From contig CAWHDR010000001.1 of the NCBI GenBank assembly GCA_963828165.1, forward strand, positions 1,152,001-1,216,000: a stretch of 64,000 nt of DNA, written 5' to 3'. Shown here in pieces: positions 42,585-57,852 of this stretch (position 1 is its first letter; every line of letters begins with the position of its first letter). Origin of the DNA: an uncultured Chloroflexia bacterium. Lineage in GTDB: Bacteria; Chloroflexota; Limnocylindria; Limnocylindrales; CSP1-4. The notes under the pieces were generated by a model that searched no databases, was not told the origin of the DNA, and saw nothing but the letters and a program-made list of their open reading frames with translations. The translations under genes were made by a program, and so were the position numbers.

Positions 42585-42690
42585 GTGCATGGCGTGAGTG
42601 GCAACTCCTGCCGCCCCCTGCCCGCCGCCTCGACGGATCGCTGGATCCGATCGGCGCGGATCGGAACACGCGTCGCTCCAAGGAGTTCGC

Positions 42691-43047
42691 TTGACCGGGA
42701 TCTGGTACGTCATCGGGTTCGCCTTCGCGGGCGTGTCCTTCGTGTTCCTGACGATCGCCGCCGCGTGGCTCGTGTCCCACCGCAACCGCGGCGACGTGCA
42801 CAAGGGCCTGCCCTACGAATCCGGGATCGACACGTACGGCGACACCCATGGCCGCTTCGGCCTGTCGTTCTACATCTACGCCCTGCTGTTCGTCGCGTTC
42901 GATATCGAAGTCATCTTCATCTACCTGTGGGCGATCGCCTTCGACTCGCTGCTGCTGGGCGGCCTGGTCAGCATGCTGATCTTCGTGGGCATCCTCCTGC
43001 TCGGCCTGGCTTACGCCTGGCGCAAGGGGGCGATGTCATGGCGGTGA
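42691..43047 (+). CDS. nuoA: NADH-quinone oxidoreductase subunit A
   Basis: [36 protein letters not shown]; AAGGAG RBS before TTG. Confidence 0.93.
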
Positions 43048-43805
43048 AGCCCAAGGGTGCCGATGGGGCCGAGAACCTCGGCACCGGTCCGGCGGACGTG
43101 ACGGCGATCGGCTCCGACGCCACGACTCAGCCCGGGCTGCCCGCGACCCGTCCGTCGGATGCGCTGACGGTCCCGATCGTCGTCCCCAACTCGCTCTGGC
43201 AGGCCGCCGATCCTGAGGCCTACGACGGCGGGCGCCCGACCGACATCACCCACCTCGCCGAGTTCGAGGCGAGCGGTCTCGGTCGCCGCGACGATGCCCG
43301 CTGGGGCGGCTTCCTCGAGGTCATCCCGACGAAGGCCGACTATGTGCTCGACCTCATCCGGATGAACAGCCTCTGGCCGCTGCTCTCGGGCCTGGCCTGT
43401 TGCGCGATCGAGATGATGTCGGCGGCGACCTCGAAGAACGACATGGACCGCTGGGGCATGTTCCCGTTCCGGGCAAGCCCACGCCAGGCCGACGTCCTGA
43501 TCGTGGCCGGCACGCTGACGACCAAGATGGCGGGGCCGCTCGTCCGCCTGTGGGAGCAGATGCCCGAGCCCAAGTGGTGCGTGGCGATGGGCGATTGCAC
43601 CTGTTCCGGGGGGCGCTACAAGCGGAGCTACTCCACGGTCGAGGGCATCGACCGGGTCATGCCGGTCGACGTCTACGTCCCGGGCTGTCCGCCCCGCCCG
43701 GAGGGCCTCATCTACGGGATGATGAAGCTCCAGCAGCTCGTCAAGGACCGCCGCGGGCACTGGCCCGACCGGGCGATCGGGCCGACCGTTCCCGAGCAGG
43801 TCTGA
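43038..43805 (+). CDS. nuoB: NADH-quinone oxidoreductase subunit B (long N-terminal extension)
   Basis: [46 protein letters not shown]. Confidence 0.95.
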
Positions 43806-43807
43806 CC

Positions 43808-44356
43808 ATGGACCGCGCGTTCAAGGCCCGCCTGGAGGCCCGCTTCGCCGACCAGCTGACCGGGCCGGTCCGGCAGCGCCACGACGAGACCGAGATCCGC
43901 ATCGGCCCCGGCGACGTGACCCAGGTGATCACCGCGCTCCACGACGAGCCCGCGTTCGGCTTCGAGTTCCTGGCCGATCTGGCGGGCGTCGACACCGGCG
44001 AGGTCATGCAGGTCGTCTACCACCTGTGGAGCGCGACGACACCGGACTGGCTGCGGGTCATCGCCGACGGCCTTTCGCGCGACGACCCCCGCGTCCCGTC
44101 GGTCACCTTCATGTGGAAGGGCGCCGAGTGGATGGAGCGCGAGGCCTACGACATGTTCGGCATCACGTTCGAAGGCAACCGCGACCTGCGGCGCATCTAC
44201 ATGCCGCCCGACTACCAGAGCTTCCCCTTGCGCAAGGACTTCTTCCTGCCCGACGACGCCGCCCGCTCGCCCGGGGCGGGTGTTCGACCCATGGAGCGAA
44301 CCCACGCGCCGCGCAACGCTCCGGCGACCGCGACGGTCCGCCGTGGCGATGCCTGA
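43808..44356 (+). CDS. nuoC: NADH-quinone oxidoreductase subunit C
   Basis: VPSV..W.GAEWMEREAYDMFGI.F.G..DLRRI.MP...PLRKDF. Confidence 0.93.
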   Translation: MDRAFKARLEARFADQLTGPVRQRHDETEIRIGPGDVTQVITALHDEPAFGFEFLADLAGVDTGEVMQVVYHLWSATTPDWLRVIADGLSRDDPRVPSVTFMWKGAEWMEREAYDMFGITFEGNRDLRRIYMPPDYQSFPLRKDFFLPDDAARSPGAGVRPMERTHAPRNAPATATVRRGDA

Positions 44357-44383
44357 CCAGGCCATCACGTCCAAGGATCCCGC

Positions 44384-45634
44384 ATGACCGCGACGAAGCC
44401 CCGCCCCGACGCCCCCGCCCACGCCCAGCCGGACGCGCCGAGCGACGATCCGCGCGTCAGGCTCGACCGCGACCTCGGCGTGTTCGAGCCGGTCCCGCCC
44501 TACCCGCCCCGGACCGAGCGAGAGGCCGAGTTCTACACCCTCGGCGACGGCGAGATGTTCATCAACATGGGCCCCCAGCACCCGTCGACCCACGGCGTGC
44601 TCAGGGTCGTCCTCAAGCTCGACGGCGAGAAGGTCGTCGACCTCGATCCGGTCCTGGGCTACCTCCATCGCGGTGTCGAGAAGCTGTGCGAGAACGCCGA
44701 CTACCACCAGGCCATCTGCTACCTCGATCCGCTCGAGTACGTGAGCTCACTGTTCTGCGAGTGGCCCGGCGTCATGGCGTTCGAGAAGCTGATGGACGTC
44801 CAGGTCCCGCGCCGCGCCGAGTACATCCGCGTCCTGTCCGCGGAGCTCAACCGGGTGGCCAGCCACGCCCTGTTCCTCGGTTGGATGGCGCTCGACCTCG
44901 GCGGCCTCACGCCGATCCTGTGGTCGTTCATCGAGCGCGACGAGATCGTGGAGATGCTTGCCTCGCTGACCGGCCAGCGGATGCTGTTCAACTACTTCCG
45001 GATCGGCGGCGTGAACGGCGACCTCAACCACGAGTTCATGAGCCGGCTCGGCGACTGGATGAGCCACGCGACCGAGCAGATCGAGGCGGGCAACGCGCTC
45101 CTCAACGAGAACGAGATCTTCGTGCGCCGGATGCGCGGTCTCGGCACCATCGACTCGAAGGCGGCGCTGCGGATGGTGATGACCGGGCCGAACCTGCGCG
45201 CGACGGGCGTGCCGTTCGATGTCCGCCGGGCGCACCCGTACAGCATCTATCCGGAGCTGGATTTCGACATCCCGACGCGCACCGAGGGCGACTGCCTGGC
45301 GCGCTACCTGCTCCGGATGGACGAGGTCAAGCAGAGCCTGCGGATCATCGACCAGTGCCTGCACCAGATGCCGGACGGCCCGGTCATGGCCAAGCTTCCG
45401 CGTCTGCTCCGACCGCGTCCGGGACGCGCGTACGCCGGCATCGAGGGCCCACGCGGCCAGTACGCCGCATACGTCGTGAGCGACGGCACCGACCAGCCCT
45501 TCCGCATGCGGATCCACGACCCCTCGTTCATCCACCTGCAGGCGGTGGGGGTCATGACCCCGGGTCACTTGATCGCCGACACGATGGCGGTGATGGCGTC
45601 CCTCGACCCGATCATGGGCGGCGTCGACAAGTGA
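44384..45634 (+). CDS. nuoD: NADH-quinone oxidoreductase subunit D
   Basis: NMGPQHPSTHGVLR, GYLHRG.EK, ELNR.ASH, EGPRG, SLDPIMG.VD; no [NiFe] CxxC motifs. Confidence 0.95.
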   Translation: MTATKPRPDAPAHAQPDAPSDDPRVRLDRDLGVFEPVPPYPPRTEREAEFYTLGDGEMFINMGPQHPSTHGVLRVVLKLDGEKVVDLDPVLGYLHRGVEKLCENADYHQAICYLDPLEYVSSLFCEWPGVMAFEKLMDVQVPRRAEYIRVLSAELNRVASHALFLGWMALDLGGLTPILWSFIERDEIVEMLASLTGQRMLFNYFRIGGVNGDLNHEFMSRLGDWMSHATEQIEAGNALLNENEIFVRRMRGLGTIDSKAALRMVMTGPNLRATGVPFDVRRAHPYSIYPELDFDIPTRTEGDCLARYLLRMDEVKQSLRIIDQCLHQMPDGPVMAKLPRLLRPRPGRAYAGIEGPRGQYAAYVVSDGTDQPFRMRIHDPSFIHLQAVGVMTPGHLIADTMAVMASLDPIMGGVDK

Positions 45635-45655
45635 ACGGCCACGGAGGACTGCCTT

Positions 45656-45774
45656 GCGCGCCGCTGGACGAGCCGAGGCGAAGGCGCCGGGGAGCAGCGC
45701 AGCGAGCGCACCCCAAGGTGCGTGAGCGAAGCAGCGGAGCCGGCAACGCGCGCATCGGCCGTCCGGTGGTGCGC
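45656..45774. repeat. About 120-bp imperfect inverted-repeat element (REP/MITE-like) between nuoD and nuoH
   Basis: GCGCGCCGCTGGACGAGCCGAGGCG pairs imperfectly with CGCATCGGCCGTCCGGTGGTGCGC; inner hairpin CGCACC-ccaa-GGTGCG. Confidence 0.55.
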
Positions 45775-45789
45775 TGAAGTGACCGCCAC

Positions 45790-47130
45790 ATGACGGTCGT
45801 CGGGAGGTCTTGGGGCAGGCTGACCCTGCCCGGCAAGATCGTGTTCACGGTCGTGCCCTTGTTGCTGCTTGCGACCGTTGCATTGGTCGCGGTCATCGTG
45901 CTGTTTGGCGAGCCGATCCTCGACATCCTCGTCGCGAACCTGCCGATCGTCCGTTTCGTGGTGGCAGTGACGATCGTCCTGCTGATGACGATCCCGACCG
46001 CGTTCCTGATCATCTACATGGAGATGAAGATCATCGCCCTGATGAATCTTCGGATCGGGCCGGATCGGGTGGGTCCGTTCGGATCCCTGCTGTCGGTGGT
46101 CCACGGGCTCAAGGTCCTCATGAAGGAGGATTTCACCCCCACGGGCGCCGACCCCATCGTGTTCACGTGGGCCCCGGTCGTCGTCTACCTCGCGAGCGTG
46201 ATGACGCTGCTCGTGATCCCGTTCGCGCCGGGGCTGTACGGGCAGGACCTGAACCTGGGGCTGCTCTACTTCTTCGCGATCGGCGGGCTGTCCGTGGTCG
46301 GGCTGCTGATGGCCGGCTGGGCGAGCTACAACAAGTACTCGCTCCTCGGCGGCCTGCGCGCGGCAGCCCAGGTCATCAGCTACGAGATCCCGCTGGTGCT
46401 GTCGGTCGTCGGGCTGATCCTGTTGGCCGACACGATGAGCGTGAACCAGATCGCGGAGAACCAGGCGGGCTGGTTCACCGACTGGTACATCTTCCGCCAA
46501 CCGCTCGGGGCGCTGATCTTCTTCATCGCCGCGACCGCCGAGGCGAACCGCACCCCGTTCGACCTCACGGAGGCCGACTCCGAGATCGTCGCGGGCTTCG
46601 CGACGGAGTACTCGGGGATGCGCTTCGGCTTCTTCTTCTTCGCCGAGTACGTGAACGTATTCATCGTCTCGGCGCTGTTCGTCACGTTGTTCCTTGGCGG
46701 CTGGAATGCCCCGTTCCCCTGGCCGTGGCCGGTGGAGCTGTCGCTGGACCCGGCCGGACTCGGCATCGGCCTGCTGCTGCTGGCCGGGATCGTCCCGGTC
46801 GTCCTGACGCTGCTCTTCGCCGCGCCGTTCTGGATCGCGAGCTCGCGCATCAAGTGGTGGCAGGCCCTGCTCGCCGGCTTCGTGCTGGCGAACCTGTTCA
46901 TCGTTGCGATGCTTGGTGCGTGGGCGTACATCGGGCTCGACTGGGTCGCCGGTATCCTCTGGTTCATGCTCAAGACGTACACGCTGGTGTTCACCTTCGT
47001 GTGGATGCGCGGCACGCTCCCGCGCGTCCGCATCGACCAGCTGATGGACTTCGCCTGGAAGTGGCTGCTCCCGGCATCCCTCCTGAACCTGTTCGTGACC
47101 GCGGCGGCCATCGTCGTCGTGGGCCGGTGA
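45790..47130 (+). CDS. nuoH: NADH-quinone oxidoreductase subunit H (with extra TM segments)
   Basis: RIGPDRVGPFG, KYSLLGGLRAAAQVISYE, AEANRTPFDLTEADSE, EYSG, WMRGTLPRVRIDQLM. Confidence 0.95.
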   Translation: MTVVGRSWGRLTLPGKIVFTVVPLLLLATVALVAVIVLFGEPILDILVANLPIVRFVVAVTIVLLMTIPTAFLIIYMEMKIIALMNLRIGPDRVGPFGSLLSVVHGLKVLMKEDFTPTGADPIVFTWAPVVVYLASVMTLLVIPFAPGLYGQDLNLGLLYFFAIGGLSVVGLLMAGWASYNKYSLLGGLRAAAQVISYEIPLVLSVVGLILLADTMSVNQIAENQAGWFTDWYIFRQPLGALIFFIAATAEANRTPFDLTEADSEIVAGFATEYSGMRFGFFFFAEYVNVFIVSALFVTLFLGGWNAPFPWPWPVELSLDPAGLGIGLLLLAGIVPVVLTLLFAAPFWIASSRIKWWQALLAGFVLANLFIVAMLGAWAYIGLDWVAGILWFMLKTYTLVFTFVWMRGTLPRVRIDQLMDFAWKWLLPASLLNLFVTAAAIVVVGR

Positions 47131-47140
47131 GGGGCATCGC

Positions 47141-47824
47141 ATGAGCTTCATCCCAGGCCTCGGCATCGCGAAGGGCATGGCGCTGACCCTGCGCCGCTTC
47201 TTCGAGCCCAAGGTCACGATCATGTACCCGGAGGTGCGGGCCGACGTCCCGCACAAGTTCCGCGGCCGGCTGCAGCTGCTCTACGACGAGTGGGGCACGC
47301 TCAAGTGCGAGACCTGCTTCCAGTGCGCCCAGGCGTGCCCGATCGAATGCATCGACATGGGCGGCATCGATACCCGCGGCCGATACCACGTCCACTGGGG
47401 CGCGGCCGAGACGTACGGGGAGCGGCGCGAGGAATCCGCGCTGCGCCGGTCGGGACGGACGGTGCCGGATCCGGCCTACCTCCCGTTCGCGCCGGTCGAC
47501 CTCGCCCAGGTCGACGCGATCCTCGAAGAACACGACCACGACCCCGCACGGATGCTCGACATCCTCGAGGCGACCCAGACCGCCTACGGCTACCTGCCCG
47601 TCGCCGCGCTCAAGCGGATCAGCCACGAGACGGGAGCCTGGTACGCGATGATCTACGGCACGGCCAGCTTCTACGCGCACCTGCGCTTCGAGCCCGCGGC
47701 GTCCGCCGAGCAGGCGAAGGCCGTGGACGAGCACCGGCCGGCCGAATTCGAGCTATCTCGCGGCGCTCGATGCCGCGCTGGACGGCGGCGGGCGCCCCGG
47801 CGCTCCGGCGCGGGCCTGACATGA
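47141..47824 (+). CDS. Fusion of NuoI N-terminal half (one CxxCxxCxxxCP) and NuoE N-terminal helical domain; no [2Fe-2S] domain; possible frameshift near 47748 (alternative stop 47819)
   Basis: KGMALTLRRFF..KVTIMYPE....FRGR...KCETCFQCAQACP, then VDAILEEH...LDILEATQTAYGYLP..ALKRIS...IYGTASFYAHLRFEP. Confidence 0.85.
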   Translation: MSFIPGLGIAKGMALTLRRFFEPKVTIMYPEVRADVPHKFRGRLQLLYDEWGTLKCETCFQCAQACPIECIDMGGIDTRGRYHVHWGAAETYGERREESALRRSGRTVPDPAYLPFAPVDLAQVDAILEEHDHDPARMLDILEATQTAYGYLPVAALKRISHETGAWYAMIYGTASFYAHLRFEPAASAEQAKAVDEHRPAEFELSRGARCRAGRRRAPRRSGAGLT

Positions 47825-49119
47825 CCGAGATCCTGAAGACGCCGGCCAAATGGCCGACGATCCTCCTCGGGCGGGCGCATGCCAAGGACCCGACGGACCT
47901 CGATGCCGCCGTCGCAGCGGGCGCATTCACCGGCCTGCGCCGCGCCATCCGGGACCTGGGCCCGACCGCGATCATCGCGACGGTGGCCGAGTCCGGGCTG
48001 CGCGGGCGGGGCGGGGCGGGCTATCCGGCCGGCGAGAAATGGCGGACCGCGGCGACCACGGATGCCGACCGGCGCTACGTGGTGGCGAACGGCTATGGCG
48101 CTGACCCTGCCTCGCACACGGACCGCTCGCTGATGCTCCTGGACCCGTTCTCGGTGATCGAAGGCACGGCCATCGCCGCGTACGCGATCGGCGCGAACGA
48201 GGCCTTCATCGCCGTGCGATCGGAGGACGCCGACGTCATCGCAAGCGTGTCGGCGGCCATCGGCGCCGCGACGGACGCCGGCTTCGTGGGGGAGGACGTC
48301 TCGGGTTCCGGGCACGACATCCACATCACGGTCCGCCCCGTCCAGGGCGCATACATGCTCGGCGAGGAGACCGTCCTGCTCAAGGCGCTCGAGGGCAAGC
48401 GCGGCCAGCCCGAGCAACGACCACCGCACCCGGCCGAACGCGGGCTCTTCGACCGCCCGACGCTCGTCCACAACGTCCAGACTCTCGCGGCCGTGCCGTG
48501 GATCGTGCGCGAAGGCGCCACGGCGTTCCGCGCGACCGGGACGACCGGCAGCCCTGGGACGGTGCTCGTCCAGGTGCGCACGCCCGGCGGCAAGAACGGA
48601 GTCGCGGAAGTCCCGCTCGGCACGCCGCTGCGCGACGTCCTGGGCCTCGGCGGCAAGCTGCCGGCCGGTCGGTCGATGAAAGCGGTGCTGGTGGGCGGCC
48701 CATCCGGCGGGCTCTTGCCAGCGGACGCGCTCGACACCCCCTACGACTTCGAGCCCTTGCGGGCGGTCGGTGCGCACCTTGGATCAGGCTCTGTCGTGGT
48801 CGTCGACGATCGGACCGACCTGCTCGAGCTCGTCGGCGTCCTGACGCGGTTCTGTTCGAACGAGGCCTGCGGCAAGTCCATCCCGTGCCGGATCGGCGTC
48901 AAGCGCCTGGCCGAGATCGTCGCGCGGCGCGAGGAAGGCCTGCTGCGGCCGGTCGACATGGAGCTCGCGACGGACCTCGCGACCGACATCGTGGCCTCCG
49001 CCCTGTGCGACCACGAGCGGCTGGCCACCCTCCCCCTGACCAGCGGGATGCGATACTTCGGGTCCGACTTCGACCCTGCCCGCCGTCCCCAGCCGGCGTC
49101 GACCGAGGCCCCCCGATGA
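47821..49119 (+). CDS. NuoF/HoxF-like flavoprotein subunit with degenerate motifs
   Basis: SGLRGRGGAGYP.G.KW, GAY.LGEET, EGKRGQP, GGPSGG, LGSG, EACGKSIPCR...LC. Confidence 0.88.
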   Translation: MTEILKTPAKWPTILLGRAHAKDPTDLDAAVAAGAFTGLRRAIRDLGPTAIIATVAESGLRGRGGAGYPAGEKWRTAATTDADRRYVVANGYGADPASHTDRSLMLLDPFSVIEGTAIAAYAIGANEAFIAVRSEDADVIASVSAAIGAATDAGFVGEDVSGSGHDIHITVRPVQGAYMLGEETVLLKALEGKRGQPEQRPPHPAERGLFDRPTLVHNVQTLAAVPWIVREGATAFRATGTTGSPGTVLVQVRTPGGKNGVAEVPLGTPLRDVLGLGGKLPAGRSMKAVLVGGPSGGLLPADALDTPYDFEPLRAVGAHLGSGSVVVVDDRTDLLELVGVLTRFCSNEACGKSIPCRIGVKRLAEIVARREEGLLRPVDMELATDLATDIVASALCDHERLATLPLTSGMRYFGSDFDPARRPQPASTEAPR

Positions 49120-51782
49120 CCGACACCCTGGCCCGTCCACCCGGCCGCACCGCCACGACCGCACCGTCGGCTCCCGAGTCGTCCGCGGAGTCGCTCGCCG
49201 ATCGCCTGCTGGACACGCAGTCGCCGCAGCGCCCCCAGTCGACGCCGCGGATCCGCATCGAGGTCGACGGCCGCGTCGTCGAGGGCTTCGAGGGTCAGAC
49301 GATCCTCGAGGTCTGCCGCGACAACGGGATCGAGATCCCGACGCTGTGCTACGAACCCAAGCTGCCTGGCTTCGGTGCCTGCCGGATGTGCGTCGTCGAG
49401 GTCGAGGGCGAAGAGCACCCGCCGATCTCCTGCTCGCGCACCTGCGAGCCGGAGATGAAGGTCCAGACCCAGACCGAAACGGTCCGCCGCCTGCGCCGGA
49501 CGAACCTCGAGCTGATCTTCAGCGATCACAACGCGTACTGCCTGCCGCCATGCCAGAACAAGTGCCCGAGCCACATCGACATCCCGGGCTTCCTCAAGGC
49601 CAACGCCGAGGGCAACTTCCGCGAGTCGGCCCGCATCTTCAAGCGGACGATCCCGTTCCCATCCGTCCTCGGGCGGGTCTGCCCGGCACCGTGCGAGGAG
49701 CACTGCCGGCGCGACGAGGTCGATGAGGCGATCGCCATCCGCGATACGCACCGCTACGCCGGCGACCAGGTCCTCAAGGCGCAGCTGGACGACGGGATCG
49801 ATCCGCCGGTCCCGTTCGAACAGCAGACGAAGTCCGGTCGCACGGCCGCGGTCATCGGTTCCGGACCGGCCGGCATGGCCGCCGCGTATTACCTGCTGAT
49901 CGCCGGCCACGACGTCACGGTCTTCGAGCGCGACCCGGCACCCGGCGGCATGCTCCGCTACGGCATCCCGCAGTACCGCCTGCCCAAGGTCGAGGTCCTC
50001 GAGGCCGAGTACGAGTCGGTCATGCGCCTCGGCGCGAAGATGGTCACCAACGCCGGGCTCGGGCGCGATTTCACGCTCGACGACCTGACGATGCAGGGCT
50101 TCGACTCGGTCGTCGTGGCCATCGGCTGCTACGACACGAACAAGCTCGGGATCCCGAACGAGGACGCCGACGGCGTCATCGATGGGCTCGAGTACCTGCG
50201 CACGGCGACGCTCGGCCTGCCCTACCCCGACCACGTCGGCAAGCGCGTCGTGGTCATCGGCGGCGGCTTCACCTCGATGGACTGCTCGCGGACGTCGGTC
50301 CGCCAGGGCGCCGGCGAGGTCACGCTCGTGTACCGCCGCGACATGAAGGACATGCCGGCGGCCGACGAGGTCCACGAGGCCATCGAGGAAGGCGTGACCG
50401 CGATCTTCCAGGCCGGACCGACGCGGGTCATCACGGACGAGAAGACCGGCAAGGTCACGGGCGTCGAGTTCATCCGCATGCAGCTCGGCGAGCCGGACGC
50501 GTCCGGCCGGCGCCGGCCGGAGCCAGCGCCCGGGACGGAGTTCACGATCCCGTGCGACCGGGTGTTGTTGGCCATCGGCCAGGGACCAGAGCTCGATTGG
50601 CTGGCCCAGCCCGGCAACGAGGGCCCCGAGGCCACCAAGCAGCGACGTCTCAAGGCCGACTCCGTGACGTTCTCGACGGGCCGTCCCGGCGTCTTCGGCA
50701 CCGGCGACGTGCGGATCGGCGCGGCGACGGTGGTCGAGGCGATCGCCGAAGGCCGGCGCGCTGCCTATGCCGTGGACGCCTTCCTGAAGGGCATGGATCT
50801 CGACGCGATCCGGACGCGCCAGACGCTGGCCGAGCCCCAGCCGGAGTTCCTGTCGATCGTGCCGTTCACGGCCGAGATGAAGGAATCTCGCTACCGGTTG
50901 CAGGCCCTGCCTGCCGAGATGCGCAACCGGAGCTACATCGAGTACGAGCTGCCCTACACGCCCGAGGCGGCCGTGGCCGAGTCGACCCGCTGCCTGCAGT
51001 GCACGTGCGAGGCCATCGGCTTCTGCGACCTGCGACGGCTGGGGATCGAATACGGCACCACGCTCAAGACCCTGGAGCCGCAGAACCACCAGGGCGCGGG
51101 CTACCGGTCGGTGACGGAGAACCGGTTCACGGGCATCAACCACGACTACATCCGCGACGATTCGCACGCGTTCATCCTGCGCGAGCCCTCCCGCTGCATC
51201 GACTGCGGGCGGTGCGCGAATGTGTGCGCCGAGGTCGTCGGCGCCGCGTGCTACGACTTCATGCGCATCGGCTTCGACACGCTCGTCACGACGCCACTCG
51301 ACATGAGCCTCAACGACACCCCGTGCGTGTCCTGCGGGCGCTGCGCCGAGACGTGCCCGACCGGCGCCTTGATGCCGAAACCGCGGGTGCTCGAGAAGTA
51401 CGAAGTCGACGAGAGCCGCTGCATCCTGTGCGGGATCTGCGTCGATGCCTGCCCGTACGACGCACTGCGCGACGGCGCGGACTTCGAGCTCGCGCACACC
51501 GGCCGCGACGAGCCGAACATCGACCTCATGGCGCTCGCGGCGATCGACCGCGAGACCGAGGTCACGTACATCCGCCGCGAGCGCGACTGGGCGACGCGAG
51601 CGGCGGCCGAGGGCAGGATCATCGACCCGGGGCGGATGCTGCCGATGCTGCCACCCACGATCTCGGGCGTTCCGACGCCTGGCGCGATCGGCGCGGGCGG
51701 GAATGGACATGGGGGCAATGGACACGACCACGGCCACGATCACGGAGCGGTCGCGGCCCTCGGTCCGGGCGGGCACGAGTAG
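49116..51782 (+). CDS. Multidomain Fe-S flavoprotein: NuoG/HoxU-like [2Fe-2S], GltD/NfnB-like FAD-NAD(P)H domain, 2x[4Fe-4S], and NuoI C-terminal half
   Basis: IPTLC...GACRMC..C; HNAYCLPPCQNKCP; GRVCPAPCE..C; IGSGPAG; GGMLRYGIP.YRLP; IGGGFTSMDC..YRR; RCLQC.C...C; CIDCGRC..C; CVSCGRC..CP; KYEVDESRCILCGICVDACP.DAL....FELA. Confidence 0.88.
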   Translation: MTDTLARPPGRTATTAPSAPESSAESLADRLLDTQSPQRPQSTPRIRIEVDGRVVEGFEGQTILEVCRDNGIEIPTLCYEPKLPGFGACRMCVVEVEGEEHPPISCSRTCEPEMKVQTQTETVRRLRRTNLELIFSDHNAYCLPPCQNKCPSHIDIPGFLKANAEGNFRESARIFKRTIPFPSVLGRVCPAPCEEHCRRDEVDEAIAIRDTHRYAGDQVLKAQLDDGIDPPVPFEQQTKSGRTAAVIGSGPAGMAAAYYLLIAGHDVTVFERDPAPGGMLRYGIPQYRLPKVEVLEAEYESVMRLGAKMVTNAGLGRDFTLDDLTMQGFDSVVVAIGCYDTNKLGIPNEDADGVIDGLEYLRTATLGLPYPDHVGKRVVVIGGGFTSMDCSRTSVRQGAGEVTLVYRRDMKDMPAADEVHEAIEEGVTAIFQAGPTRVITDEKTGKVTGVEFIRMQLGEPDASGRRRPEPAPGTEFTIPCDRVLLAIGQGPELDWLAQPGNEGPEATKQRRLKADSVTFSTGRPGVFGTGDVRIGAATVVEAIAEGRRAAYAVDAFLKGMDLDAIRTRQTLAEPQPEFLSIVPFTAEMKESRYRLQALPAEMRNRSYIEYELPYTPEAAVAESTRCLQCTCEAIGFCDLRRLGIEYGTTLKTLEPQNHQGAGYRSVTENRFTGINHDYIRDDSHAFILREPSRCIDCGRCANVCAEVVGAACYDFMRIGFDTLVTTPLDMSLNDTPCVSCGRCAETCPTGALMPKPRVLEKYEVDESRCILCGICVDACPYDALRDGADFELAHTGRDEPNIDLMALAAIDRETEVTYIRRERDWATRAAAEGRIIDPGRMLPMLPPTISGVPTPGAIGAGGNGHGGNGHDHGHDHGAVAALGPGGHE

Positions 51783-51790
51783 GCCGGACG

Positions 51791-52384
51791 GTGCTCGCGA
51801 AGCTCGTCCCGATCCTCATCGCGCTCATCGTCATGGGCGCCGTCCTCGGCATCGCGGCCCTCATGCTGATCGTGCTTGGCCAGGACTGGGACGACGCACT
51901 CTTGTGGATCCTGTCCGCCGTGATGCTGGGCTCGGGGCTCCTGGTCGTGACGATGCGCGACATCATCCGCTGCGGCCTGGCGATGATCGTGTGCTTCCTC
52001 GCCCTGGCCGGGATCTACGTCCTGATGGGGGCGCCTTTGCTGGGGGCCGCCCAGGTCATCGTCTATATCGGCGCGATCAGCGTGCTGATCCTCTTCGCGA
52101 TCATGCTGACCCAGACCAAGGACGCCCCGAGCCGGCTGGTCTTCCAGACCCAGGCCGTGCCGGCGGCCATCGCGGCCGTCGTGGTCGCCATCCTCATCGC
52201 GCTGGCCGTGGCAGCGACCGACTGGGGTGAGCTGACCGAGCGTGTGCGCCTCGCCACGAGCAGGATGTCGGAGGTCCTGTTCGAGCAGTTCGTGTTCCCG
52301 TTCGAGATCGTCAGCGTCCTGCTGCTGGCGGCCGTGATCGGCGGCGTGTTCCTGGCCAAGCGCGAACCGGGCGGCCCGCCGTGA
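51791..52384 (+). CDS. nuoJ: NADH-quinone oxidoreductase subunit J
   Basis: [46 protein letters not shown]. Confidence 0.92.
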
Positions 52385-52698
52385 GCGACAGCCTCGATGC
52401 GTACCTGATCCTGTCGGGGATCCTCTTCGCCATCGGTTCTTTCGGCTTCCTGGCCCGGCGTAACGCGATCAGCATGCTGATGTCGATCGAGCTGATGCTC
52501 AACGCCGTCAACCTCGCCATCGTGGCCTTTGCCGCGTTCAGTCCGGCCCTCGACGCACAGGCCCAGGGCTCGGTCATCGCCCTGATGGTCATGGCGGTAG
52601 CCGCCGCCGAGGCCACAGTCGGGCTGGCCATCGTCATCGCGATCTACCGGAACAAGAAGACCCCTCTCGTTGACGAATACGACGCGATGTCCCGGTGA
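52381..52698 (+). CDS. nuoK: NADH-quinone oxidoreductase subunit K
   Basis: LFAIG..G...RRN...[25 protein letters not shown]. Confidence 0.95.
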
Positions 52699-54701
52699 GC
52701 CTCGAGTCGCTGATCCCGCTGCTTGTCATCCTGCCCATCGCAGGCTTCGCGGTCACGGCGCTCGTCGGGCGACGGCTGGGCAAGCAAGCCCACTGGGTCC
52801 CGGTGCTCGTGATCCTCGGCGCGTGGGCCATCGCGATGGCCCTGGCCTTCCAGGTGCTGACGGGCGCCGCGCCGCTGCTTGAGGGATCCGAAGAGGCACA
52901 CGGGTACGCCCTTCACTGGTTCACCTGGATCCCGGCCGGCGACTTCGTCGTGGAGGTCGGCTTCGTCGTTGACTCGCTGACGGCGTGCCTGCTGATCGTG
53001 GTCACGACGATCGGGCTGCTCGTCCACATCTATTCGGTCGGCTACATGAGCCACGACCCGGGGTACTGGCGCTTCTTCGCCTACCTGAACCTGTTCATGT
53101 TCTCGATGCTGCTGCTGGTCCTCGCGGATTCTTGGCTCGTGGTGTTCGTGGCGTGGGAGCTGGTCGGCCTGTGCAGCTACCTGCTCATCGGCTTCTGGTA
53201 CCGCAAGCGCTCGGCCGCGCTGGCCGCCAAGAAGGCGTTCATCGTCAACCGCGTCGGCGACATCGGTTTCGCGCTCGGGATCATGGCCATCTGGGTCAAC
53301 ACCGGCGCCGTGGGCGAGGCGACGCTGAACATCCGCGAGTCCATCCATACGATGCTCGAGGCGGGCGATGCCAACCCGATCCCGCTCTTCGCGACCGCGT
53401 TGCTCGTGTTCGCCGGAGCCATGGGCAAGAGCGCCCAGTTCCCGCTCCACGTCTGGCTCCCCGACGCGATGGAGGGCCCGACCCCGGTGTCGGCGCTCAT
53501 CCACGCGGCCACCATGGTCAACGCCGGCGTGTACCTGGTCGCCCGGGCGAACGAGCTGTTCGCCTCCGCCCCCGACGCGATGGTCATCGTCGCCGCGATC
53601 GGCATCTTCACGGCCATCCTCGCGGCGACGATCGCCATGACCCAGACGGACATCAAGCGGGTCCTCGCCTATTCCACGCTGAGCCAGCTCGGCTACATGT
53701 TCGCGGCGCTCGGGGTGGGCGCGTTCACCGCGGCGATCTTCCACCTCATGACCCACGGCTTCTTCAAGGGCCTGCTGTTCCTGGGTTCCGGTTCGGTCAT
53801 CCACGCCGTCCACGAAGAGCAGGACATGCGCCGGATGGGGGGCCTCGCCTCGAAGATCCCCATCACCTACGCGACGATGTTCATCGGCTCCATCGCGATC
53901 GCCGGCATCCCGCCGCTGGCAGGCTTCTTCAGCAAGGACGAGATCCTGGGTGAGGCCTTCAAGTTCGGCTTCTACTGGGTCTGGGGGATCGGCCTGTTCG
54001 TCGCGTTCCTGACGGCCTTCTACATGTTCCGGCTGATGGGTTTGACGTTCTGGGGCGCGTTCCGAGGTCCCAAGGAGCTCTGGGACCGCATCCACGAGTC
54101 ACCGCGGGTGATGACCGTGCCGCTCATCCTGCTGGCGATCCCGTCGATCTTCCTGGGCATGGTGCTCGGCCTCCCGCTCGGCGACAGCACCCTCCATCAC
54201 TGGCTGGAACCGGTCTTCCACCATTCGACCGAGGAACTGCTCCACCTCCCGCACGAGCCGTACGCGCTGTTCGGCATCGACGGCGGGCTGATCCTTGCGA
54301 GTGTCACGGTCGCCGCGATCGGCGTGGCCCTGGCCTGGCGCCTGTTCGGAGCCGACGTCGGCGCGCTGCGCCTGCCGGCCCGACCCGAGCGGGTGCGCGA
54401 GATCAGCTCACGTCCCGGCCTCTCGTTCCTCTATCGGGCATCGCTCAACAAGTGGTGGTTTGACGAGCTCTACCACTTGCTGTTCATCGTTATCGGTGGT
54501 CGGATCGCGGCGGCGATGTGGTGGTTCGATCGGGAGGTCGTCGACGGGACCGTGAACGATGTCGGCCGGGCCACGGTCGGTGCGGGGCGCGGGCTGCGGC
54601 GCGTGCAGACCGGTCGAGTCCAGAACTACGCGCTCGGGATCGCCCTCGGCCTGATCGTCATGGCTGGTTCCTACCTGATCCTCGTGGGGAACCCGCGATG
54701 A
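52695..54701 (+). CDS. nuoL: NADH-quinone oxidoreductase subunit L
   Basis: [68 protein letters not shown]. Confidence 0.96.
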
Positions 54702-56359
54702 CGCTCAACGCGTTCCCGATCCTGTCGCTGGTCACGTTCCTGCCGTTGGTCGGGGCCTTGGTGGTGGCGATCCTGCCCTCCAGGTTCACCCGACCGGTCG
54801 CGCTCGGTTTCGCGCTCGCGGCGTGGGTGGTCTCGCTGCTCCTGCTGATCGGCTACCTGCCCGGGCGGCTGGGCACGCAGTTCCTGTACGTCGAGGTGTA
54901 CGACTGGATCCCGATCTTCGGCATCCAGTACAAGCTCGGCGTCGATGGGTTATCGGCCGCCCTGGTCGTGCTCACGACCACGCTGACCTGGATCTCCATC
55001 CTGGCGAGCTGGAAGCCGATCCAGACCCGGATCAAGGAATACATGATCAGCTTCCTGGTCCTCGAGGTGGGGATGATCGGCGTCTTCCTCGCCCTGGACA
55101 TGTTCCTGTTCTACATCTTCTGGGAGATCGTCCTGGTCCCGATGTACCTGATCATCGGCATCTGGGGCGGCGCGAACCGGATCTACGCGACGATCAAGTT
55201 CGTCCTGTACACGCTCGTCGGGTCGCTCCTGATGCTCGTGGCCATCCTGGCGACGGCATTCGCCTACCAGGCGGCCAACGGCGGCTCGTGGGTCGGCGCC
55301 TTCGACTTTGAGACGTTGCGCACGTTTGCCAGCGGCGGCGGCTTCTCGCCGGCCCTCCAGGTGGGTGCCTTCCTGGCCTTCTTCCTGGCGTTCGCGATCA
55401 AGGTCCCCATGTTCCCGTTCCACACGTGGCTGCCCGACGCGCATACCGAGGCGCCGACCGCGGGCTCGGTGATCCTGGCCGCGATCATGCTCAAGCTCGG
55501 CGCGTACGGGTTGATCCGCTTCGCGGTGCCGCTGTTCCCGGACGCGGCCCTGACGTTCGCGCCGGTCGTGATCGTGCTCTCGCTGATCGCGATCATCTAC
55601 GGGGCGATCGTGGCGCTCGTCCAACCGGACCTCAAACGGCTCGTGGCCTTCTCATCGGTCAGCCACATGGGCTTCGTGACGCTGGGCCTGTTCGTCTTCA
55701 CGGAGCAGGGCGTCCAGGGCGCGATCCTCCAGATGATCAACCACGGACTCATCACGGGTGGCCTGTTCCTCCTGGTCGGCGTCATCTACGAGCGGACCCA
55801 CGACCGGACGATCGCGAAGATGGGCGGGCTCGCGGCGCGGATGCCAGTGTGGGCCGCCGTGTTCGGGTTCTTCGCCTTCGCGTCTGGCGGGCTGCCGGGC
55901 CTGTCCGGCTTCGTCGGGGAGTTCCTCACGCTGGTCGGGACGTTCGACGTCAGCCCGCTGGGCGCGACGATCGCGGCCTTCGTGATGGTTCTCGCGGCGG
56001 GGTACCTGCTGTACATGTACGGGCGCATCGTCTTTGGCGAGGTCTCCGGGTTCATCGCAGGCCTTGGGAATCACCTGGCGGACATGACCCCGATCGAAAC
56101 GCTGACCCTTGTGCCGCTGGCGACGCTGATCGTCGTGTTCGGCTTGCAGCCGGGGCTGCTGCTCGACCTCGTGCGGGGGACGGTGCGTGAGACGCTGGGT
56201 GCCGCGTCGACGGGCGCGCCCCTGTCGGTCGGCCCAGAAGTCGTGCTGATCGGTGTCGCCATCGTCGTGCTGGCCGTGATCGCCCGGATCGCGTTCGCCC
56301 TGCGACCGGGGCGGTCGGAGCCCGCAGGGACCGTGGCCGCCGAAGGCGGCGCCCATTGA
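54698..56359 (+). CDS. nuoM: NADH-quinone oxidoreductase subunit M
   Basis: LGVDGLS, FYIFWE..LVPMY, KVPMFPFHTWLPDAHTEAPTAGS, SSVSHMG, GLPGLSGFVGEF. Confidence 0.96.
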   Translation: MTLNAFPILSLVTFLPLVGALVVAILPSRFTRPVALGFALAAWVVSLLLLIGYLPGRLGTQFLYVEVYDWIPIFGIQYKLGVDGLSAALVVLTTTLTWISILASWKPIQTRIKEYMISFLVLEVGMIGVFLALDMFLFYIFWEIVLVPMYLIIGIWGGANRIYATIKFVLYTLVGSLLMLVAILATAFAYQAANGGSWVGAFDFETLRTFASGGGFSPALQVGAFLAFFLAFAIKVPMFPFHTWLPDAHTEAPTAGSVILAAIMLKLGAYGLIRFAVPLFPDAALTFAPVVIVLSLIAIIYGAIVALVQPDLKRLVAFSSVSHMGFVTLGLFVFTEQGVQGAILQMINHGLITGGLFLLVGVIYERTHDRTIAKMGGLAARMPVWAAVFGFFAFASGGLPGLSGFVGEFLTLVGTFDVSPLGATIAAFVMVLAAGYLLYMYGRIVFGEVSGFIAGLGNHLADMTPIETLTLVPLATLIVVFGLQPGLLLDLVRGTVRETLGAASTGAPLSVGPEVVLIGVAIVVLAVIARIAFALRPGRSEPAGTVAAEGGAH

Positions 56360-57852
56360 TCGCCCAGGACTTCGTCACGATCTCCCCGCTTATCGCGGCC
56401 GTGCTGACGGCCGCCGCGGTCCTCGTCGCGGACCTGATCCGGCCCGGCCGTTCCGGCCCCTCGGTCGCGACCGCGCTCATCGGACTCGCCCTGACGGCGC
56501 TGATCACGCTGTCCGTCGGCAGCACGGAGGCCACGGCCTTCGGCGGCTCGTACACGGTCGACCCGCTGACCACGTTCCTCGACATCCTGTTCATCGCCGT
56601 GATCGTGATGACGATCCTGTTCGCCCCCGATTACCTCCTGCCACGCGGGCTGCCGGTGGCGGAGTTCGCGACCGTGCTGATCTTCGCGATGAGCGGCGCG
56701 ATGCTGCTCGCCGGCTCCAGCGACCTGCTGCTGCTCTTCCTCGGCCTCGAGCTCATGGTCCTCCCGGGCTACCTTCTCGCCGGCTTTCACAAGACCGATG
56801 GCTTTTCGACCGAGGGCGCCATCAAGTACTTCCTGCTCGGCTCGTTCAGCTCGGCGATCTTCCTGTTCGGGCTGGCCTTCGTGTGGGGTTTGACCGGGAC
56901 GACGCTCGTGGCCGGTCCGGACGGCATCGCGGCCAGGCTGGCGGCGATCGTCGCGGGTGAGGCGCCGCTGTCCGCGGGCCTGGCGATGGGCCTCGCGTTC
57001 ATGACGACGGGTGTCGCATTCAAGATCGCGGCCGTGCCGTTCCACTACTGGACACCAGACGCGTACCAGGGCTCGCCGACACCGGTCACCGGCTATCTCT
57101 CGGTCGGCCCCAAGATCGGCGCGTTTGCCCTGATCCTGCGGCTGTTCGTGGAAGCGCTTGGGCCGCTTGCCGACGTGTGGCTCCCGGTCGTCATCATCCT
57201 GGCCGCGTTCACGATGACGCTGGGCAACCTCGTGGCCCTCACGCAGGACAACGTCAAGCGGATGCTTGGCTACAGCTCCATCGCGCACACCGGCTACATG
57301 CTCGTCGGGCTCGCCGCGTACGCGGCCGGCGAGCTCCAGGGCCTGTCGGGCCTGCTCTTCTATCTCGCCGCCTACGCATTCATGAACCTCGGGGCGTTCG
57401 CCGTGATCGCCGCGCTCCAGAAGCGCGCCGGGGTGACCTCTCAGCTCGACACGTTCGCCGGGCTCGGCCGGCGGGAGCCGCTCCTGACCGTGCTCATGAC
57501 GCTGTTCCTGCTGTCGCTCATCGGGATCCCGCCGACCGCCGGGTTCTTCGCCAAGTACGAGATCATCGTGGCCGCGGTGCAGGCCGGCGGGGCGCTGACG
57601 TGGCTCGCGGTCCTGGTGGTCCTCAATGCCGCAGTGGCCGCCTTCTACTACCTGCGGGTCGTCGTCTACATGTTCATGCGCGATCCCGCGACCGACGCAC
57701 CGGCGCTCCGCCACGGCGCGCTGATGTGGGGTGGCCTCGCGGCCGCGACCGTCCTGACGATCCTCCTGGGGCTGTTCCCGACGGCGCTGCTCGGGATCGT
57801 CGACCAGGCTGCGCAGGCGCTCCTGGGCACGGCGGGCATCGCGGGGACCTGA
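56356..57852 (+). CDS. nuoN: NADH-quinone oxidoreductase subunit N
   Basis: EGAIKYFLLG, FKIAAVPFH.WTPDAYQGSP, KRMLGYSSIAH.GY, GIPPTAGFFAK, YYLR. Confidence 0.96.
   Translation: MIAQDFVTISPLIAAVLTAAAVLVADLIRPGRSGPSVATALIGLALTALITLSVGSTEATAFGGSYTVDPLTTFLDILFIAVIVMTILFAPDYLLPRGLPVAEFATVLIFAMSGAMLLAGSSDLLLLFLGLELMVLPGYLLAGFHKTDGFSTEGAIKYFLLGSFSSAIFLFGLAFVWGLTGTTLVAGPDGIAARLAAIVAGEAPLSAGLAMGLAFMTTGVAFKIAAVPFHYWTPDAYQGSPTPVTGYLSVGPKIGAFALILRLFVEALGPLADVWLPVVIILAAFTMTLGNLVALTQDNVKRMLGYSSIAHTGYMLVGLAAYAAGELQGLSGLLFYLAAYAFMNLGAFAVIAALQKRAGVTSQLDTFAGLGRREPLLTVLMTLFLLSLIGIPPTAGFFAKYEIIVAAVQAGGALTWLAVLVVLNAAVAAFYYLRVVVYMFMRDPATDAPALRHGALMWGGLAAATVLTILLGLFPTALLGIVDQAAQALLGTAGIAGT

Follow-up and report, generated by a model that had tools for sequence, protein, structure and literature searches.

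Respiratory complex I is among the best-studied bioenergetic enzymes, and its input module for reduced nicotinamide adenine dinucleotide (NADH) and its single-chain NuoI (TYKY) subunit are treated as invariant cores. The present analysis concerns a complex I (nuo) operon within a 64,000-nucleotide stretch of contig CAWHDR010000001.1, referred to here as the window, from a Limnocylindria bacterium, a member of a class common in soil and freshwater collections of metagenome-assembled genomes (MAGs). Three genes between nuoH and nuoJ of this operon, given the working names IE, F and G, encode NuoI as two separate halves and, joined to these, a module resembling the soluble NADPH/NADH transhydrogenases NfnABC and StnABC.

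According to the available parts of the Stn/Nfn papers, StnC and NfnA consist of a NuoG domain with a GltD/NfnL insert, and electrons in Nfn follow the path FAD-A7-A6-A3-A2-A1-B1-FMN between a flavin adenine dinucleotide (FAD) and a flavin mononucleotide (FMN), with the bifurcation site B1-FMN-C1 also requiring B3/B4 (PMC10482914, PMC11829005, PMC12018979). The solved Nfn-type enzymes are those of C. saccharolyticus (9BOV/9BP5), S. ovata (8OH5/8OH9) and T. sibiricus (9N5U/9N5V). In solved NfnABC, the FAD-A7-A6-A3-A2 steps lie within 15 Å, and A2-A4-A5 is described as a dead-end side branch in NfnA that carries electrons in formate dehydrogenases (PMC11829005, available sections). A membrane-bound relative, 'Nuo-Bfu', has been predicted by Schut et al. 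2022 in Geobacter, Deferribacteres, Planctomycetes and Nitrospirae, with the BfuABC genes placed midway through a nuo operon (PMC9304861, available sections).

A three-gene module within a divided NuoI

IE (47141..47824, + strand, 227 residues) encodes a fusion of the N-terminal NuoI half with a NuoE remnant, F (47821..49119, + strand, 432 residues) encodes a trimmed NuoF/BfuB core, and G (49116..51782, + strand, 888 residues) encodes an NfnA/StnC-type iron-sulfur (FeS) flavoprotein that ends in the C-terminal half of NuoI. The N-terminal half (47168..47386, + strand; IE residues 10-82; NF004536/TIGR01971) carries the first CxxCxxCxxxCP motif (C56, C59, C62, C66 and P67), which was invariant in an alignment of 14 sequences from four families with 46-81% identity to the window. 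The second such motif (C769, C772, C775, C779 and P780) is located in the C-terminal half (51384..51518, + strand; G residues 757-801; TIGR01971). On the 121-position NuoI model, IE covers positions 1-63 and G covers positions 71-115/116, so that the two matches are complementary with zero overlap; the IE match includes the NuoI-specific N-terminal segment (model positions 1-40) and thus extends beyond a mere Cys motif. When compared with the intact NuoI encoded in a canonical nuo operon of another genome of the same class (G022, locus L038), IE residues 7-78 were 44% identical to residues 74-145, and G residues 757-793 were 49% identical to residues 156-192. Since the halves align to consecutive parts of NuoI, the break can be placed between the two CxxCxxCxxxCP motifs, in the loop that connects them. 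In the window genome (3.31 Mb, 6 contigs, 87.7% complete), a six-frame search identified only these two half matches and no NuoI above the TIGR01971 cut-off.

The remainder of IE encompasses a NuoE/StnA-type N-terminal helical domain (47492..47701, + strand; residues 118-187). The Pfam 2Fe-2S_thioredx match is confined to positions 2-64 of 145, and among solved structures this part is closest to 9bov_C (20-89) and 8oh5_A (14-86). Sequence comparison with relatives and solved chains revealed that the [2Fe-2S] Cys ligands (N1a/C1) are absent from the window IE. The IE proteins of loci L033, L028, L027, L029, L031, L032 and L040 are longer (273-282 residues) and retain a thioredoxin-like remnant, in which the first Cys pair (CxCxxC) is present and the second pair is replaced (GAGA/PGA). 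This remnant resembles a vestige of the former [2Fe-2S] site, and it has been wholly lost in the subclade of the window.

Near the end of the window IE, an extra T (47746..47747, + strand; GAATTC versus GAA-TC in the three nearest relatives L041, L042 and L043, blastn) shifts the frame of the last ~24 residues; the IE proteins of relatives share a conserved tail (...YLAAL...GGGRPGAPARA). The extra T is missing from one RNA-library contig and may reflect either a mistake in the assembly or a variant without consequence.

Domain architecture of G

Pfam matches in G comprised Fer2_4 (residues 45-120), a truncated NADH-G_4Fe-4S_3 (127-143), Fer4_20 (142-221), Pyr_redox_2 (245-546), Fer4_Nqo3 (687-752) and Fer4 (762-785). 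The [2Fe-2S] NuoG/HydA-type N-terminal domain (49248..49475, + strand; residues 45-120; Fer2_4 5.8e-20) has C78, C89, C92 and C106 as ligands. It is followed by a GltD/NfnL-type unit (49539..50795, + strand; residues 142-560), delimited by Fer4_20, Pyr_redox_2 and alignment to 9bov_A, 9n5u_A and 8oh5_C, with two [4Fe-4S] sites (one formed by C150, C189, C193 and H212), an FAD motif (G248-G253), an NAD(P)H motif (G382-G384) and Y406-R407-R408. The 2x[4Fe-4S] ferredoxin-like domain (51174..51371, + strand; residues 687-752; Fer4_Nqo3 and Fer4_7) contributes C694/697/700/704 and C737/740/743/747, and G ends ~100 residues beyond it, whereas the solved chains comprise 1172-1178 residues and alignments to them stop near residue 700. 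Across the 14 aligned sequences, all [2Fe-2S] Cys residues, H138, C142, C146, C150, C189, C193, C197 and H212 were invariant, as were the FAD and NAD(P)H glycine motifs, Y406, R407 and R408, C626, C629, C631 and C637, both ferredoxin motifs and the motif of the NuoI C-terminal half.

The closest solved relative of G was 9bov_A (Caldicellulosiruptor NfnA; phmmer E 1e-160, residues 46-779 versus 4-699), followed by 9n5u_A (Thermococcus NfnA; 1.5e-140) and 8oh5_C (Sporomusa StnC; 7e-137), and G is collinear with all three over residues 45-781. NuoG chains, by comparison, gave only 1e-13 to 1e-22 over the first ~100 residues alone, and G scored 94 bits against the NuoG model TIGR01973 (cut-off 470). 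The GltD unit also fell below the cut-offs of stand-alone GltD models (TIGR01317, 233.7 bits versus 447.7; TIGR01318, 314.3 bits versus 482.95). An Nfn/Stn origin of G is thus well supported by sequence comparison.

Most of this architecture had been recognised in a preliminary description of the window, which quoted PPCQNKCP, GRVCPAPCE, IGSGPAG, IGGGFTSMDC and VYRR; these motifs are located at residues 144-151, 186-194, 247-253, 381-390 and 405-408, respectively. As it had stated, the GltD unit interrupts the His-cluster motif, being situated between H138-x3-C142 and C626/C629/C631/C637, the molybdopterin-type, i.e. formate dehydrogenase-like (Fdh-like), domain was not found in G by Pfam, and the likeness to the NuoG-N plus GltD architecture of StnC is borne out by the collinearity with 8oh5_C. 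The phmmer match to 9bov_A and the invariant ligands place this arrangement far beyond chance. The end of the feature at 51370 has to be revised, as this position is the end of the 2x[4Fe-4S] domain and the open reading frame (ORF) runs to 51782.

The Y406-R407-R408 motif, which we take to be the 2'-phosphate site of NADPH (the phosphorylated form of NADH), occupies the same alignment columns as the YRR of three solved NADPH-oxidising homologues. NADPH oxidation by these homologues is described in the available parts of PMC10482914, PMC11829005 and PMC12018979. His-212 of G aligns with the cluster-ligating Lys of NfnA/StnC; the cluster next to FAD (A7/C7) is reported, in the sections available, to have three Cys and a strictly conserved Lys (K170) in all described NfnA/StnC proteins (PMC10482914, PMC11829005).

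Beyond the NuoI half, G carries a poorly conserved, Gly/His-rich tail (51519..51782, + strand; GNGHGGNGHDHGHDHG), which, among relatives, is confined to family f1; families f3 and f4 lack it. In P0111 (1075 residues, PF00499), G is joined to nuoJ in one continuous frame.

The NuoF-like subunit

F exhibited Pfam matches to Complex1_51K and NADH_4Fe-4S only, without N- or C-terminal cluster domains, and scored 347 bits against the NuoF model TIGR01959 (cut-off 558). Its best solved match was NfnB (9n5u_B, 5.3e-93), followed by 9bov_B, HydB and StnB, with respiratory NuoF at 1.5e-81. The protein aligned to about residues 112-521 of B subunits of 584-602 residues (117-521 of NfnB), and in B subunits of up to 630 residues likewise to the core only.

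The FMN loop (GRGGAG) and the GEET motif are kept in the window F, and the N3/B1 motif reads C-G-K-S-I-P-C, with three of the four N3 Cys residues. Among the 14 F sequences, the loop GRGG[AS]G was kept in 13 and GEE[TS] in all, and NADEGDPG was replaced by NGY.ADP, NAYDADP or NLM.ADP. In T. sibiricus (Tsi) NfnB, Glu-286 is reported to select NADH over NADPH and Arg-303 to hold the beta-phosphate (PMC12018979, available sections). When mapped via the NfnB alignment, the equivalent of Glu-286 (the second Glu of GEET) was present in 14/14 sequences and that of Arg-303 in 13/14. The N3/B1 CxxCxxC motif is intact in family f3 (5/5) and in other classes (8/8). The pattern in the window, CxxXxxC...C, is the usual signature of a [3Fe-4S] cluster, and such clusters can still relay electrons. 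N3 in the window lineage may have become a three-Cys [3Fe-4S] cluster, and we favour the reading in which F would retain a functional NADH/FMN site with an altered first cluster.

Variation was also observed at the C-terminus, where most F proteins (L033, L034, f3 and f4 loci) end in a conserved C-x4-5-C (e.g. CPAGVC) that is missing in the window F and in L028. The latter locus belongs to the streamlined family f2 (genome G011; f2 genomes of 1.0-1.4 Mb); its F, a single sequence, reads GHGGGG in the FMN loop and has Thr as the Arg-303 equivalent, and the NADH site may be decaying in L028/f2.

A phylogenetic comparison of 156 NuoF-type cores was performed with FastTree, comprising 22 split-type sequences (from loci with the divided NuoI), canonical L038, soluble Stn-like L127, the second NuoE-NuoF of the window genome and 131 of the 150 nearest representatives drawn from a 1.84-billion-protein library; sequences covering <340 residues, namely the L039 NuoF fragment and the other 19 representatives, were excluded. 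A single group of 28 rows (support 88) united all split-type F sequences with P0213 and five short representatives. It was separate both from a 65-row clade (support 98) containing the canonical NuoF and the NuoE-NuoF fusions and from the group of Bfu-type proteins with N-/C-terminal extensions. The F sequences of family f3 grouped with those of other classes (support 99).

Conservation and distribution

Within a sample of 151 Limnocylindria genomes (5 families, 35 genera), a G homologue was found in every genome, as were NuoI half matches (151/151), whereas NuoI above the model cut-off was found in only 5/151. Without seven unpublished genomes (G123, G096, G087, G112, G091, G106 and G067), these class counts are 144/144 and 5/144. 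The best listed G match extended to at least residue 793, and thereby included the NuoI half, in 135 of the 151; the other 16 gave shorter matches or were absent from the matches listed, and several begin within a few bases of a contig start. The homologues and loci carry the names Candidatus Limnocylindrales/Limnocylindria or Chloroflexota, and nearly all are MAGs.

Gene neighbourhoods were surveyed in the best 80 of at least 589 stretches encoding a relative (species genomes). IE-F-G was present in all 68 of these nearest loci with upstream room, and nuoJ followed G in all 69 with downstream room. Families f1, f2 and f4 share the gene order of the window. In family f3, the module is part of a short B-D-IE-F-G cluster from which nuoH is separated: in the five f3 genomes checked, NuoD was encoded in the cluster and NuoH on another contig, and four had no further NuoD/NuoH match, the fifth (G034) having a second, weaker pair on one contig.

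Outside the class, full-length matches were detected in 30/268 phylum genomes (families f10, f20, f25, f29 and f47); this sample includes the unpublished genomes G185 and G354, neither of which is among the 30. Seven of eight such loci showed the order B-IE-F-G and one A-B-C-D-H-IE-F-G, and all five genomes checked also have an intact NuoI and a second, ordinary-type NuoD. The split-type complex thus coexists with a canonical one outside the class and is usually alone in Limnocylindria.

Twenty RNA runs each contained 5-10% of the sampled words, and four metatranscriptome libraries of four studies were compared. RNA contigs of 80-312 nt, 90-100% alike, were found over parts of IE, F and G in the four libraries; contig X5 (47680-47877) spans the IE/F junction and none crosses the F/G junction with 31 nt on each side. 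These contigs, which may come from relatives, faintly hint at expression of the three genes.

Operon organisation and related loci

The nuo genes form one tightly packed + strand cluster (42598-57852; Pfam, NCBIfam and ORF translation) in the order nuoA-B-C-D-H-IE-F-G-J-K-L-M-N, with neighbouring genes overlapping or abutting. All ten core subunits of the Q- and P-modules (NuoA, B, C, D, H, J, K, L, M and N) are encoded together, with normal Pfam matches, and the complex I of this operon was the only one found in the window genome. Upstream of the module, on the + strand, are nuoA (42598..43047; Oxidored_q4 5.6e-30; start codon uncertain), nuoB (43038..43805; Oxidored_q6, TIGR01957 above cut-off), nuoC (43808..44356; Complex1_30kDa 9.9e-38), nuoD (44384..45634; Pfam match in two pieces, 1-172 and 199-271) and nuoH (45790..47130; 446 residues; NADHdh 1.4e-105). 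Downstream, also on the + strand, are nuoJ (51791..52384; Oxidored_q3), nuoK (52381..52698; Oxidored_q2), nuoL (52695..54701; Proton_antipo_M/N/C), nuoM (54698..56359; Proton_antipo_M) and nuoN (56356..57852; Proton_antipo_M). The NuoB translation shows the N2-type Cys pattern (CC...C...CP). The window genome also encodes PntB.

Some of the flanking subunits show features of their own. NuoB has ~90 extra residues at its N-terminus, and NuoH residues ~318-386 are without alignment to family f4; either may be an adaptation to an unusual peripheral arm. The two-piece Pfam match of NuoD (~1-170 and 197-271) recurs in the split-type NuoD of genomes G251, G299, G275, G189 and G340, whereas the canonical-operon NuoD of those same genomes gives a single continuous match, and from this pattern the whole Q-module of the split-type complex may be a separate lineage. 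No second NuoD was found in the window genome by six-frame profile search at its 87.7% completeness.

Apparent IE-F fusions in ~690-residue open frames were rejected as stop-to-stop artefacts; of 72 loci, two had a continuous IE-F frame and one a continuous F-G frame (L078 and two other loci). Such rare continuous frames, including G-nuoJ in P0111, could be natural fusions supporting physical association or frameshift errors.

Three further loci encode related proteins. At G000:C1:1708470-1713811 (L132), a fused NuoE-NuoF of 623 residues with a full [2Fe-2S] domain adjoins Fdh-type pieces (Fer2_4/Fer4_Nqo3/Molybdop_Fe4S4; Molybdopterin plus Molydop_binding), with a predicted nucleotide cyclase gene between. 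This second NuoE-NuoF (~1.709-1.711 Mb) was considered as a spare complex I input and rejected, as it adjoins the Fer2_4, Molybdop_Fe4S4 and Molybdopterin pieces; L132 is probably a soluble NAD-linked formate-dehydrogenase-type (Fds-like) enzyme, possibly disrupted. At G000:C1:865855-867951 (L133 3855-5951, - strand), a second GltD-type protein of 698 residues has a C-terminal 2x[4Fe-4S] domain and is 38% identical to the GltD part of G. Locus L127 (G302:C22; another Chloroflexota family, genome of ~1.4 Mb) encodes a soluble-type NuoE, a NuoF (602 residues) and an NfnA/StnC-like protein (open frame of ~1243 residues); the ~5 kb of upstream and 10 kb of downstream sequence yielded no nuo genes. 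Because of this cluster, the ordinary Nfn/Stn form can be said to exist in Chloroflexota.

Proposed electron transfer and alternative explanations

The observed gene content, domain order, ligand conservation and distribution are consistent with a cassette of three genes, either derived from NfnABC/StnABC or of common ancestry with them, that sits inside nuoI between its two [4Fe-4S] motifs, the NfnA/StnC-like protein ending in the NuoI C-terminal half instead of an Fdh-like domain. The two NuoI halves would reassemble into the N6a/N6b ferredoxin fold on NuoB/D/H and thereby hold the module on the membrane arm. The GltD FAD would accept electrons from NADPH and pass them via the two GltD clusters to the NuoG-type clusters. 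The electrons would exit at A4, the second cluster of the ferredoxin-like domain, on the side branch that leads nowhere in soluble NfnA; C747, the last Cys of A4, is 21 residues from C769, the first Cys of the NuoI half. The flow would presumably continue from A4 through the reassembled NuoI clusters and N2 to quinone, driving proton pumping, and electrons from NADH would be fed into this chain via the FMN of the NuoF-like subunit.

Judged from sequence, the complex is reasonably likely to be a non-bifurcating, dual NADPH- and NADH-oxidising, quinone-reducing proton pump. The preliminary description had named NADPH as the electron donor, in agreement with the position of the YRR motif; since F retains its FMN loop together with NADH-holding and NADH-selecting residues, a dual NADH and NADPH dehydrogenase is more likely than the NADPH-specific enzyme proposed there. 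A broader proposal is put forward tentatively and with slightly more doubt than confidence: the Limnocylindria complex I, together with the second complex I of several other Chloroflexota families, would be a separate lineage whose input was acquired independently of NuoEFG, by insertion of a trimmed Nfn/Stn cassette in the middle of nuoI, giving an NADPH and NADH pump with the NfnA dead-end branch as its exit to quinone and, in the window lineage, an N3 that is probably [3Fe-4S].

Several points weigh against a dual-donor pump. The specificity for NADPH rests on homology and on our reading of YRR, and PntB offers the genome another route between the NADPH and NADH pools. The Asp of NADEGDPG, which corresponds to Tsi NfnB Asp-195, is replaced by Tyr or Met in 14/14 F sequences, and a Bfu origin of F was not recovered in the tree (split group 88, deep nodes 73). 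Contigs from RNA libraries without a DNA control cannot prove transcription. In addition, the second N3/B1 Cys is replaced by Ser, Thr or Ala in all nine f1/f2/f4 sequences, the window included, and the link from FMN to the FeS chain may be altered or lost in these families. The loss of this Cys is also an argument for a complex I fed by NADPH only, the reading of the preliminary description, in which F would be a structural relic in the window lineage and all electrons would pass via the GltD FAD. The replacement of NADE by GY[GDE] or LM[AG], the absence of the N1a domain and the GHGGGG loop with Thr at the Arg-303 equivalent in the single f2 sequence point in the same direction. A dead site is, however, hard to square with the retention of the FMN loop (13/14), GEE[TS] (14/14) and the Arg-303 equivalent (13/14) at 46-81% identity; moreover, the three remaining N3 Cys residues are kept, in a pattern typical of electron-relaying [3Fe-4S] clusters, and f3 and other classes keep the full CxxCxxC (13/13). 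A relic F is considered unlikely, but an NADPH-only enzyme is still a serious alternative for the window lineage.

The GltD site might instead be an outlet, with the complex making NADPH by NADH:NADP+ transhydrogenation or by reverse flow from quinol driven by the proton-motive force. Complex I is reversible in principle, and StnABC uses this very FeS chain from FAD to FMN. According to the available sections of PMC10482914, Stn also acts as an NADPH:NAD+ oxidoreductase and the reaction of Nfn/Stn can run in both directions. Such a role is nevertheless distinctly unlikely, as the genome encodes PntB for NADPH formation and, with this being the only complex I in 146/151 class genomes, forward NAD(P)H oxidation must be among its jobs. 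GltD-family members with a preference for NADH exist, and the GltD unit could accordingly bind NADH, giving two NADH sites, or another pyridine-nucleotide-like substrate could react at the FAD site; given that YRR is invariant (14/14) and aligned with the YRR of three enzymes whose available descriptions report NADPH oxidation (PMC10482914, PMC11829005, PMC12018979), we regard this as highly improbable. A bifurcating or confurcating membrane enzyme coupling NADPH, NADH and ferredoxin to quinone would be of the Nuo-Bfu kind predicted, with BfuABC mid nuo operon, in the available part of PMC9304861, and the window module is Nfn-like. Yet F has the B1 site only, without an N- or C-terminal cluster domain, IE is without C1 ligands, and, because C1, B2-B5 and the Fdh-like domain are absent, the module is non-bifurcating by published criteria; bifurcation thus appears extremely unlikely. 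Hardly any probability is likewise given to IE-F-G being a soluble enzyme that merely shares an operon with complex I, its NuoI-like motifs being ordinary ferredoxin motifs. The short B-D-IE-F-G or B-IE-F-G clusters of f3 and other classes, away from membrane-subunit genes, would fit such an enzyme, but these clusters still carry nuoB, with or without nuoD, and in f3 the NuoD of the cluster and the NuoH elsewhere (5/5) are without any other NuoD/NuoH match in 4/5. Without the two halves, 146/151 class genomes would have zero NuoI, and the N-terminal half carries the segment (model positions 1-40) that is specific to NuoI.

Implications

A whole bacterial class appears to rely on a complex I with a NuoI made from two polypeptides and an input module from the transhydrogenase/hydrogenase world that carries an NADPH-type flavin site. 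If the proposed function is correct, the complex would be a natural NADPH:quinone proton pump, which we know of only as an engineered E. coli variant, and would mean that the complex I core independently recruited an input module for a second time, rendering the modular-evolution model of complex I directly testable. It would also provide an example of a bifurcating enzyme stripped down to a plain dehydrogenase and would change models of respiration and NADPH balance for these organisms. The variant of complex I is new, and its function is predicted from its sequence relationships.

Comparison with described systems

The window module shares with NfnABC/StnABC the same three kinds of subunit in the same order (NuoE-type, NuoF-type and NuoG-N with a GltD/NfnL insert), and the ~735 residues over which G aligns collinearly to NfnA/StnC include every cluster motif, the FAD motif and YRR. 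It differs in that the C-like subunit is without [2Fe-2S] (C1), the B-like subunit is without the thioredoxin-like N-domain and the 2x[4Fe-4S] C-domain (B2-B5), the Fdh-like domain is replaced by half of NuoI, His-212 is found instead of the conserved Lys at the first cluster after FAD, and the module is encoded inside a nuo operon. The earlier idea of a Stn-like module grafted onto a membrane complex I stands in so far as all three proteins match NfnABC/StnABC best and nuo genes flank them; it had overlooked the graft point, i.e. the split NuoI with its halves fused to the first and last proteins of the module, and, with the StnA/BfuC [2Fe-2S], the extra BfuB cluster domains, the Fdh-like domain and the StnC Lys all missing, the module is not a working Stn.

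Like canonical complex I (T. thermophilus Nqo1-14, E. coli Nuo), the complex comprises NuoA-D, H and J-N, the N2-type Cys residues of NuoB and a NuoF-like FMN subunit. Unlike it, NuoI is distributed over two polypeptides, NuoE is reduced to the helical domain without N1a, N3 has three Cys in the window lineage, and the N-module genes are located between nuoH/I' and nuoJ rather than after nuoD. In comparison with canonical NuoG, G is without the large C-terminal domain and has a GltD flavoprotein insert with an extra [4Fe-4S]. As for GltD itself, the small subunit of glutamate synthase, G residues 142-560 have the same fold and motifs, with the difference that they are embedded in a NuoG-type FeS protein and that the operon has no GltB partner.

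The mbx-like operons described by Degli Esposti 2015 (PMC4758237, available sections) likewise place a GltD-type NAD(P)H flavoprotein on a complex-I-like membrane module. In those Mbx/Mrp-type complexes, from Thermotoga and proteobacteria, NuoI is replaced by the GltD protein, at which NAD(P)+ is proposed to be reduced, whereas the window keeps both NuoI cluster motifs, an Nfn/Stn-like module with NuoF and a true Nuo membrane arm.

A literature search found no description of the present architecture, although the supplementary files of Schut et al. 2022, which lay outside the search, could list related clusters. The survey reported in the available part of that paper selected BfuB homologues with a ferredoxin-type domain (PMC9304861), and, because F is without such a domain, the IE-F-G family was probably outside it. 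Nuo-Bfu differs from the window in its full bifurcating BfuBC core, its 14-subunit Nuo A-N and its NADH and ferredoxin confurcation, and the sections available mention neither a GltD unit nor a split NuoI (PMC9304861). The predicted Nuo-Bfu is, as far as those sections describe it, the nearest published idea to the present complex, the two having in common that the NADH module of complex I is replaced by a Bfu-type module encoded mid-operon (PMC9304861).

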